DNA from: Escherichia coli
GTDB taxonomy: Bacteria; Pseudomonadota; Gammaproteobacteria; Enterobacterales; Enterobacteriaceae
Reading direction: 5' to 3' (one strand)
NCBI RefSeq assembly: GCF_050920415.1
Contig: NZ_CP169309.1
Length of the DNA: 64,000 nt
Position 1 is the stretch's first letter. Each line of letters starts with the position of its first letter. The position numbers were made by a program, and so were the translations under genes. The notes under the pieces were generated by a model that did not search any database, had not been told where the DNA came from, and worked only from the letters and a program-made list of their open reading frames with translations. Positions 13,133-14,528 of this stretch are shown piece by piece.

Positions 13133-13981
13133 ATGGCGACATACCTTATTGGCGACGTTCATGGTTGTTACGATGAACTGATCGCATTGCTGCATAAAGT
13201 AGAATTTACCCCTGGGAAAGATACCCTCTGGCTAACAGGCGATCTGGTTGCGCGCGGCCCAGGTTCGCTGGATGTTCTGCGCTATGTGAAATCCTTAGGC
13301 GACAGCGTACGTCTGGTGCTGGGCAATCACGATCTGCATCTGCTGGCGGTATTTGCCGGGATCAGCCGCAATAAACCGAAAGATCGCCTGACACCGCTGC
13401 TGGAAGCGCCTGACGCCGACGAGCTGCTTAACTGGCTGCGTCGCCAGCCTTTGCTGCAAATCGACGAAGAGAAAAAGCTGGTGATGGCCCACGCAGGGAT
13501 CACGCCGCAGTGGGATCTGCAGACCGCCAAAGAGTGCGCGCGCGATGTAGAAGCGGTGCTGTCGAGTGACTCCTATCCCTTCTTTCTTGATGCCATGTAC
13601 GGCGATATGCCAAATAACTGGTCACCGGAATTGCGGGGGCTGGGAAGACTGCGGTTTATCACCAACGCCTTTACCCGTATGCGTTTTTGCTTCCCGAACG
13701 GTCAACTGGATATGTACAGCAAAGAATCGCCGGAAGAGGCCCCTGCCCCACTGAAACCGTGGTTTGCGATTCCTGGCCCTGTCGCTGAAGAATACAGCAT
13801 CGCCTTTGGTCACTGGGCATCGCTGGAAGGCAAAGGTACGCCGGAAGGTATTTACGCGCTGGATACTGGCTGCTGCTGGGGTGGTACATTAACCTGCCTG
13901 CGCTGGGAAGATAAACAGTATTTTGTCCAGCCGTCGAACCGGCATAAAGATATGGGTGAGGGAGAGGCGGCCGCGTCTTAA
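13133..13981 (+). CDS. apaH: Bis(5'-nucleosyl)-tetraphosphatase (symmetrical) ApaH
   Basis: 282-aa ORF with metallophosphatase motifs ([22 protein letters not shown]). Confidence 0.95.
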
Positions 13982-14292
13982 ATCCCGTCGAGCATAAAAT
14001 CTAATGCTCCTTTAATCAACGTTCGGTGCGCGCTGGCATCGCAAAATTTCGTTCCCAGCGCGTTAACTGGAACAGTTGCAGTCTCATGCGTCATGAGCAC
14101 ATATTCTTTGCCATATACCAGTAAAAGGATTGGGTTAAGCCGTTCTGGTGGGCGAATATGGCTAAATCGTTCAATAGGTGTTCATGGAATAACGATACGG
14201 CGATTAATCTCACCAATAATGTCGCTGGTAACATCGATAACAAAGGGCAACGCGGCGTTCCTGCCGCGACTGCGGTATACCGTAAATTGCAT
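13978..14292 (-). pseudogene. ccdB: ccdB-type gyrase-poison toxin gene interrupted by an in-frame TGA at codon 37
   Basis: Manual minus-strand translation from the ATG at 14292..14290: MQFTVYRSRGRNAALPFVIDVTSDIIGEINRRIVIP-stop(TGA, plus 14182..14184)[71 protein letters not shown]. Resembles F-plasmid CcdB (MQFKVY...MFWGI) as I recall it. Confidence 0.8.
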
Positions 14293-14294
14293 CG

Positions 14295-14528
14295 CTAGAA
14301 GCTCCGGTACTCATCAGAGAAACATCCGGTTTCATCAGCCAATTGATTTAACGCAGCGATAGCTTCTGCGTTCTCTTCACGCCAACGTGTTGCTGCATGT
14401 TTTTTAAGTTCAGCATTGAGCGCAACCGTAAGGGTGGCGCTCATATTTAAGCCTGCATCACGAGCGCGATTGACTAACTCACGGTCGACGGTGACGGTCA
14501 CACTTTGTGTGGTACGTTTTGCAGTCAT
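14295..14528 (-). CDS. ccdA: CcdA-type antitoxin (chromosomal ccd locus)
   Basis: 77-aa ORF MTAKRTTQSVTVTVDRELVNRARDAGLNMSATLTVALNAELKKHAATRWREENAEAIAALNQ...; resembles F CcdA by recollection; lies 86 bp downstream of folA and directly upstream of ccdB. Confidence 0.85.
   Translation of the reverse strand: MTAKRTTQSVTVTVDRELVNRARDAGLNMSATLTVALNAELKKHAATRWREENAEAIAALNQLADETGCFSDEYRSF

Follow-up and report, generated by a model that had tools for sequence, protein, structure and literature searches.

In the window analysed here, a single stretch of 64,000 nucleotides from the Escherichia coli chromosome (contig NZ_CP169309.1 of RefSeq assembly GCF_050920415.1), the ccd locus is a remnant that consists of an orphan antitoxin gene and a toxin pseudogene, and no longer a working toxin-antitoxin (TA) pair. 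With high confidence, the locus can be regarded as a chromosomal ccdO157-type type II TA islet between the core genes folA and apaH, which has entered the earliest phase of decay. Through a T>G transversion, codon Leu37 (TTA) of the gyrase-poisoning CcdB became TGA, so that translation would end after 36 residues, leaving an orphan antitoxin gene with no known role, for which later erosion is to be expected. The pattern itself is already known, as toxin-first decay at the folA-apaH locus was published in 2009 and the pseudogene is already annotated publicly.

The coordinates of the locus and its neighbors are collected in Table 1. The window lies in the orientation opposite to K-12, according to blastn of the window against that genome. 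ccdA and ccdB are located on the same strand with the antitoxin gene upstream, and a 2-nt gap separates the ccdA stop codon (14295..14297) from the ccdB ATG (14290..14292), while the stop codons of ccdB and apaH overlap in a TTAA palindrome. According to alignment, the islet of ~613 bp stands in place of the 77-bp REP-containing spacer of K-12 MG1655, whose homology to the window breaks off just past the apaH stop codon and sets in again ~18 nt ahead of that of folA. The locus thus shares with ccdO157 both the position between folA and apaH and the replacement of the K-12 spacer, in agreement with the published description (PMC7232551; PMC3184786). In some genomes a third arrangement is present, in which a DUF4291 gene adjoins apaH. 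As well, the 3' end of apaH (13940..13981) differs from that of K-12 by a 6-nt insertion (..MGEGEAAAS versus ..LGEAAAS) and by several substitutions just before the islet boundary. Rfam and tRNA scans gave no match within or beside the ccd islet. An antisense ORF of 89 aa (14093..14362, plus strand) that spans ccdB and ccdA was taken as a chance ORF.

Table 1. Coordinates of the ccd locus, its flanking genes and the allele-specific changes in the window.
Feature	Position	Strand	Basis or remark
apaH	13133..13981	+	sequence, ORF list
ccdB toxin pseudogene	13978..14292	-	104 codon positions plus TAA, interrupted at codon 37
residual N-terminal ORF of ccdB, 36 codons plus TGA	14182..14292	-	ORF list; translation from the ccdB start codon should give no other product
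premature stop TGA (codon 37)	14182..14184	-	TTA (Leu) T>G; plus strand A>C at 14183
F15L (TTT>TTG) in ccdB	14248	-	also in the ORF-intact R32_14_1F allele
R45H (CGT>CAT) in ccdB	14159	-	15/5426 genomes, 13 of these with Leu37; R32_14_1F among the carriers
D60Y (GAT>TAT) in ccdB	14115	-	only in the two TGA-carrying genomes
ccdA antitoxin gene, intact	14295..14528	-	77 codons plus TAG; ORF and translation
ccdA upstream region	14529..14613	-	sequence; putative promoter
folA	14614..15093	-	flanking gene
ccd islet extent relative to K-12	13983..14595		MG1655 alignments and blastn; boundaries approximate to a few bases

The minus-strand translation of ccdB reads MQFTVYRSRGRNAALPFVIDVTSDIIGEINRRIVIP, then a stop, and then TPIERF...LDGI up to the terminal stop. 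The sole internal stop is the TGA at codon 37, which appears as 'tca' on the plus strand and is followed by 67 in-frame codons, and because of it no complete translatable toxin ORF is present. The 36-residue ORF ahead of the stop matches the NCBIfam CcdB profile NF010262 at positions 1-35 of 101 only. Once codon 37 is restored to Leu, the repaired protein of 104 residues matches Pfam PF01845 with an E value of 6.2e-31 over model positions 1-101 of 101, and it aligns end to end with the CcdB structures 2kmt (Vibrio fischeri), 1vub (F plasmid), and 7epi. The ccdB frame is not a chance ORF, since this Pfam match is full-length and the DNA is 97.9-98.9% identical to the intact ccd loci of other E. 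coli. In the structure-sequence alignment, the Leu of codon 37 forms part of a VIPL motif common to the CcdB proteins of the F plasmid and Vibrio fischeri. In two RefSeq genomes with the identical locus, PGAP annotates ccdA as intact and labels ccdB 'CcdB family protein, pseudogene, internal stop'. A terminator scan of 13900..14700 found one weak hairpin inside ccdB, no more than in shuffled sequences.

TTA stands at codon 37 in all five intact alleles that were read, namely those of O157:H7 FRIK804, WWCOL-236, clone D i14, MS 21-1, and R32_14_1F. Beyond the stop, the ccdB of the window carries three amino acid changes (F15L, R45H, and D60Y) and no private synonymous change, and it differs from intact ones by four bases only. 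The first-pass annotation, made from the sequence alone, had described a ccdA/ccdB pair between folA and apaH in which ccdA is an intact ORF of 77 codons, ccdB has an in-frame TGA at codon 37 with the 67 codons behind it still in frame and CcdB-like, and one change from a TTA Leu codon accounts for the stop. All of this stands: the flanking genes and coordinates agree with it, the translations confirm the intact antitoxin and the position of the stop, the Pfam match and the structure alignments of the repaired protein settle its frame, and the alignment with the five intact alleles identifies the change as T>G.

A single-base difference of this sort is the kind that a sequencing or assembly error could make, in which case ccdB would really be intact. 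However, the 701-nt allele with both TGA and D60Y is present in exactly two of the 5426 complete E. coli genomes, MFDS1022581 and N96, both of them RefSeq assemblies. MFDS1022581, a Korean food isolate, shows only 2 differences from the window in 34,640 aligned nt and is, on this evidence, nearly clonal with the source strain. N96 comes from a Tibetan pig and represents a separate strain and assembly; its aligned flanks differ from the window at 234 positions, of which 13720 and 14803 are the closest to the islet, and the islet between them is identical. Because the same allele recurs in so clearly distinct a strain, an error is extremely unlikely, and the stop codon is taken as genuine. With 2 of 5426 complete genomes, the L37-to-stop allele is rare and could serve as a lineage marker.

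If the stop terminates translation, the resulting 36-residue fragment would be without about two thirds of the CcdB fold, including the C-terminal region needed for toxicity. Since such a fragment lacks most of the fold as well as the toxicity region, no toxin should be made, and the locus would have lost its CcdB toxicity. In the F-plasmid CcdB, the residue critical for toxicity is W99 in the C-terminal region, as cited in PMC7232551. One way for toxicity to survive would be an internal start, either GTG at codon 65 or ATG at codon 67, from which a C-terminal CcdB fragment might retain activity. A 40-codon ORF (13978..14100, minus strand) beginning at the in-frame GTG would indeed hold the C-terminal helix. 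However, no Shine-Dalgarno-like sequence precedes the GTG in the sequence that was read, the fragment would, according to the alignment, be devoid of the beta-sheet core, of which the CcdB fold largely consists, and the same internal codons occur in all intact alleles, with nothing specific to this one, which makes retained activity exceedingly improbable.

Another way would be recoding of the TGA, by selenocysteine insertion or by efficient read-through, which would yield toxin of full length, possibly attenuated. Among the stop codons of E. coli, UGA is the leakiest, and low-level natural read-through is compatible with the sequence; the 67 codons past the TGA also remain open. That openness, however, is simply due to the allele being only four bases away from intact ones. 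The ancestral codon 37 encodes Leu, neither Cys nor Sec, and no stable hairpin was found in the 76 nt around and after the TGA (MFE -8.8 kcal/mol, z -0.69), so that significant RNA structure is lacking there. Moreover, read-through would place Trp in the conserved VIPL motif, with an efficiency of roughly percent level or less. Recoding is thus very unlikely, though slightly less so than an active internal fragment, and truncation after codon 36 is the reading retained below.

Disruption of ccdB is not confined to this allele. With the 701-nt locus as query, 2021 of 5426 complete E. coli genomes were matched over its full length, always on the chromosome, in single copy, and between apaH and folA. 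Among these genomes, 259 have lost 13 bp of ccdB after codon 60, and 134, including the type strain ATCC 11775, carry an inserted T (+1) at codon 40; in the three such deletion or frameshift loci that were read, PGAP annotates ccdB as frameshifted and ccdA as intact. ccdB is therefore broken independently in other lineages, at least three separate times when the L37-to-stop change is included. The ccdB ORF is disrupted in at least 395 of the 2021 carriers (19.5%), the two TGA genomes included, which is a lower bound, as the short queries depend on 28-nt seeds that match exactly and do not register missense inactivation. With the islet in 37% of genomes, at least 19.5% of carriers disrupted in ccdB, and ccdA conserved throughout, these counts extend the survey of 2009 to thousands of genomes and confirm existing knowledge.

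According to papers that cite it, Mine et al. 2009 (Genetics 181:1557) described the variable presence of the ccdO157 islet and its decay, toxin first and then antitoxin (PMC2654758; PMC3879964; PMC7280312). An inactive toxin with an active antitoxin was reported there in about 20-30% of ccdO157 variants, for which the citing papers give ~30% or 61/21/2% (PMC2654758; PMC3920263; PMC7280312; PMC3879964). The claim of the first-pass annotation that the locus is a decaying chromosomal TA system finds support both in these accounts and in the pseudogene labels of PGAP. From the logic of addiction, the toxin is expected to be lost first: its inactivation does no harm, whereas loss of the antitoxin is lethal as long as the toxin is active, and PMC3879964 likewise regards toxin inactivation as the first, non-lethal step of decay. 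The decay would presumably be neutral; the conclusion of Mine et al. 2009, as reported in PMC3920263, was that chromosomal ccdB evolves neutrally. The locus is in this respect a textbook case of chromosomal TA erosion, toxin before antitoxin, and its decay lends support to the idea that ccdO157 plays no essential part in E. coli.

The antitoxin gene itself is well preserved. CcdA matches Pfam PF07362 with an E value of 1.5e-26 over model positions 2-71 of 71, and the protein is identical to WP_000125566.1, which is annotated in O157:H7 FRIK804, clone D i14, and others. A Shine-Dalgarno sequence, AGGAG, lies 8 nt ahead of the ccdA ATG, and a -10-like TATAAA is present further upstream (14554..14549, minus strand). 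A scan of 13900..14700 for a strict sigma-70 consensus promoter found none, so the ccdA promoter is a putative one. The 85 nt upstream of ccdA contain three one-mismatch GTATAC-like sites (14609..14604, 14566..14561, and 14555..14550) against 0.53 expected (P about 0.012), which are candidate CcdA operator sites; GTATAC palindromes are the operator sites of F ccd (PMC5389731). The coding strand of the window has GCATAC at the candidate operator 14561..14566 (variant at 14565), while most alleles (O157:H7, clone D i14, WWCOL-236, and MS 21-1) have the perfect GTATAC palindrome; the GCATAC variant is common to the window, N96, and the ORF-intact R32_14_1F allele.

ccdA is probably still transcribed and translated. 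The operator of F ccd is bound only weakly by CcdA alone, with CcdB serving as co-repressor (PMC5389731). By analogy with this role of CcdB, a locus without toxin should be de-repressed and make labile CcdA only, and the ccd operon of the window is probably de-repressed for want of full-length CcdB co-repressor.

The two genes differ in how much they vary. In a sample of 10 loci, 21 of the 315 nt of ccdB are variable, 13 of these sites nonsynonymous, and two indels occur in addition, whereas ccdA varies at 3 of 234 nt (Fisher P 0.0024). Synonymous variable sites in the same loci number 1 in ccdA and 8 in ccdB, and the core flanks differ from K-12 by up to ~4%. By identity, 1081 carriers fall at >=99%, 682 at 95-99%, and 261 at 90-95% for ccdB. 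The uniformity of ccdA may reflect a recent spread of the islet together with faster change of ccdB, or a constraint at the nucleotide level.

It might also be speculated that the orphan ccdA is kept by selection, for example because it counters addiction by, or confers immunity to, CcdB relatives on incoming plasmids, or because it binds DNA as a regulator, and this would explain the species-wide conservation of ccdA although ccdB was broken at least three times. In every one of the 2021 carriers, the at least 395 with disrupted ccdB included, the nucleotide identity of ccdA to that of clone D i14 is at least 99%, and the same CcdA protein is found in toxin-dead and toxin-intact loci. However, identity of >=99% is compatible with single-base frameshifts in some genomes, the ccdB lesions amount to only three events, each of them possibly young, and the branch of the window allele, with 0 changes in ccdA and 2-4 in ccdB, gives no significant difference. 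As to the plasmids, a search found CcdB relatives on plasmids of Hafnia (H. alvei NZ_CP015380), Klebsiella (K. aerogenes NZ_CP139388), and E. coli (NZ_CP048339) that are 59-73% identical to the CcdB of the window, those carried by Hafnia and Klebsiella plasmids at 69-73% speaking for an immunity role. A plasmid match of 95% was discarded as a mislabeled 834-kb chromosomal fragment on which apaH is also located, and the real plasmid relatives reach 73% at most. Against a role directed at F, PMC3920263 reports that the F-plasmid toxin evades the chromosomal O157 antitoxin, and the neutral evolution of chromosomal ccdB reported in the same source also argues against selection. A role as regulator is opposed by the weak operator binding of CcdA alone in the F system (PMC5389731). 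Taken together, a selected ccdA is an unlikely explanation, albeit a more credible one than either recoding or an active toxin fragment, and neutral, toxin-first decay is preferred.

Several other features of the window were also identified. The gene caiE (29548..30137, plus strand) is frameshifted close to codon 50, and its original frame contains several stops; PGAP marks it 'frameshifted' in the near-clonal MFDS1022581, while in N96 caiE is intact and caiC has an internal stop. The segment 4925..5881 lies between rluA and djlA, at the place of yabP/yabQ in K-12, and contains a type III secretion effector gene annotated as espY1 (5120..5881, minus strand), adjoined by a transposase fragment at ~4925..5103; N96 is without the espY1 insert. 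A 5.6-kb segment between rpsT and nhaR (44379..49973) is not found in K-12, where IS1A stands, and holds a 490-aa ORF (44600..46072) as well as a fimbrial-type operon, whose chaperone is in two pieces (46900..47196 and 47171..47581) and whose usher is in at least three fragments (47594..49139). This segment looks like another decaying gene cluster. Likewise not found in K-12 is a 4-kb segment between nhaA and hokC (52526..56525), which possesses a 421-aa ORF, a gene that appears sulfatase-like from its translation (53904..55397, minus strand), and a gene that appears porin-like on the same basis and lies in two overlapping ORFs (55418..55774 and 55606..56178), apparently frameshifted. A second TA locus is located at 56644..56952 and belongs to type I, with hokC/mokC and the antisense RNA sok (Rfam RF01794, 120.5 bits); the Hok ORF of 50 aa is intact, and IS186, which adjoins hokC in K-12, is absent here. 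The Rfam small RNA matches ES003 and tpke11, at 35343..35395 and 58181..58258 on the minus strand, are ordinary E. coli features.

Among known systems, the ccdO157 locus of O157:H7 is the closest, with the same insertion site between folA and apaH, gene order, spacing, and CcdA protein (WP_000125566.1) as the window. The O157:H7 FRIK804 locus is 97.9% identical in nucleotides over 701 nt. However, its ccdB is an uninterrupted ORF of 104 codons, in which G10S and E28V are present, while the window allele is without both and instead carries the stop at codon 37 together with F15L, R45H, and D60Y. The O157:H7 ccd system was reportedly found to be functional by Wilbaux et al. in 2007. Its function is likewise mentioned in PMC3920263. 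In systems of the ccd family, the toxin acts on DNA gyrase and a Lon-labile antitoxin neutralizes it.

The loci of ATCC 11775 / FDAARGOS_1296 (+1 frameshift) and MSHS 133 (13-bp deletion) possess the same islet with a disrupted ccdB, which PGAP annotates as a pseudogene, and a ccdA annotated as intact. Unlike those alleles, which are indel frameshifts found in 134 and 259 of 5426 genomes, the lesion of the window is a nonsense change found in 2 genomes.

The F-plasmid ccdAB is the prototype of post-segregational killing systems. It shares with the window the two Pfam families, the layout of antitoxin followed by toxin, and the GTATAC-like upstream motifs. However, the CcdB and CcdA of the window score 57.4 and 38.6 bits, below the NCBIfam equivalog cut-offs of 147 (NF010262) and 100 (NF010264), respectively, and judging from these scores the pair is a member of the ccd family and a distant relative, no F-type equivalog. 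The F locus is also plasmid-borne, while that of the window is chromosomal and has a truncated toxin. Finally, the chromosomal CcdB of Vibrio fischeri (2kmt and 3jrz) is the best match among solved structures (E 1.9e-15, residues 2-104) and shows an IPLTPIE motif around codon 37, although it is an intact protein from another genus and genomic context.
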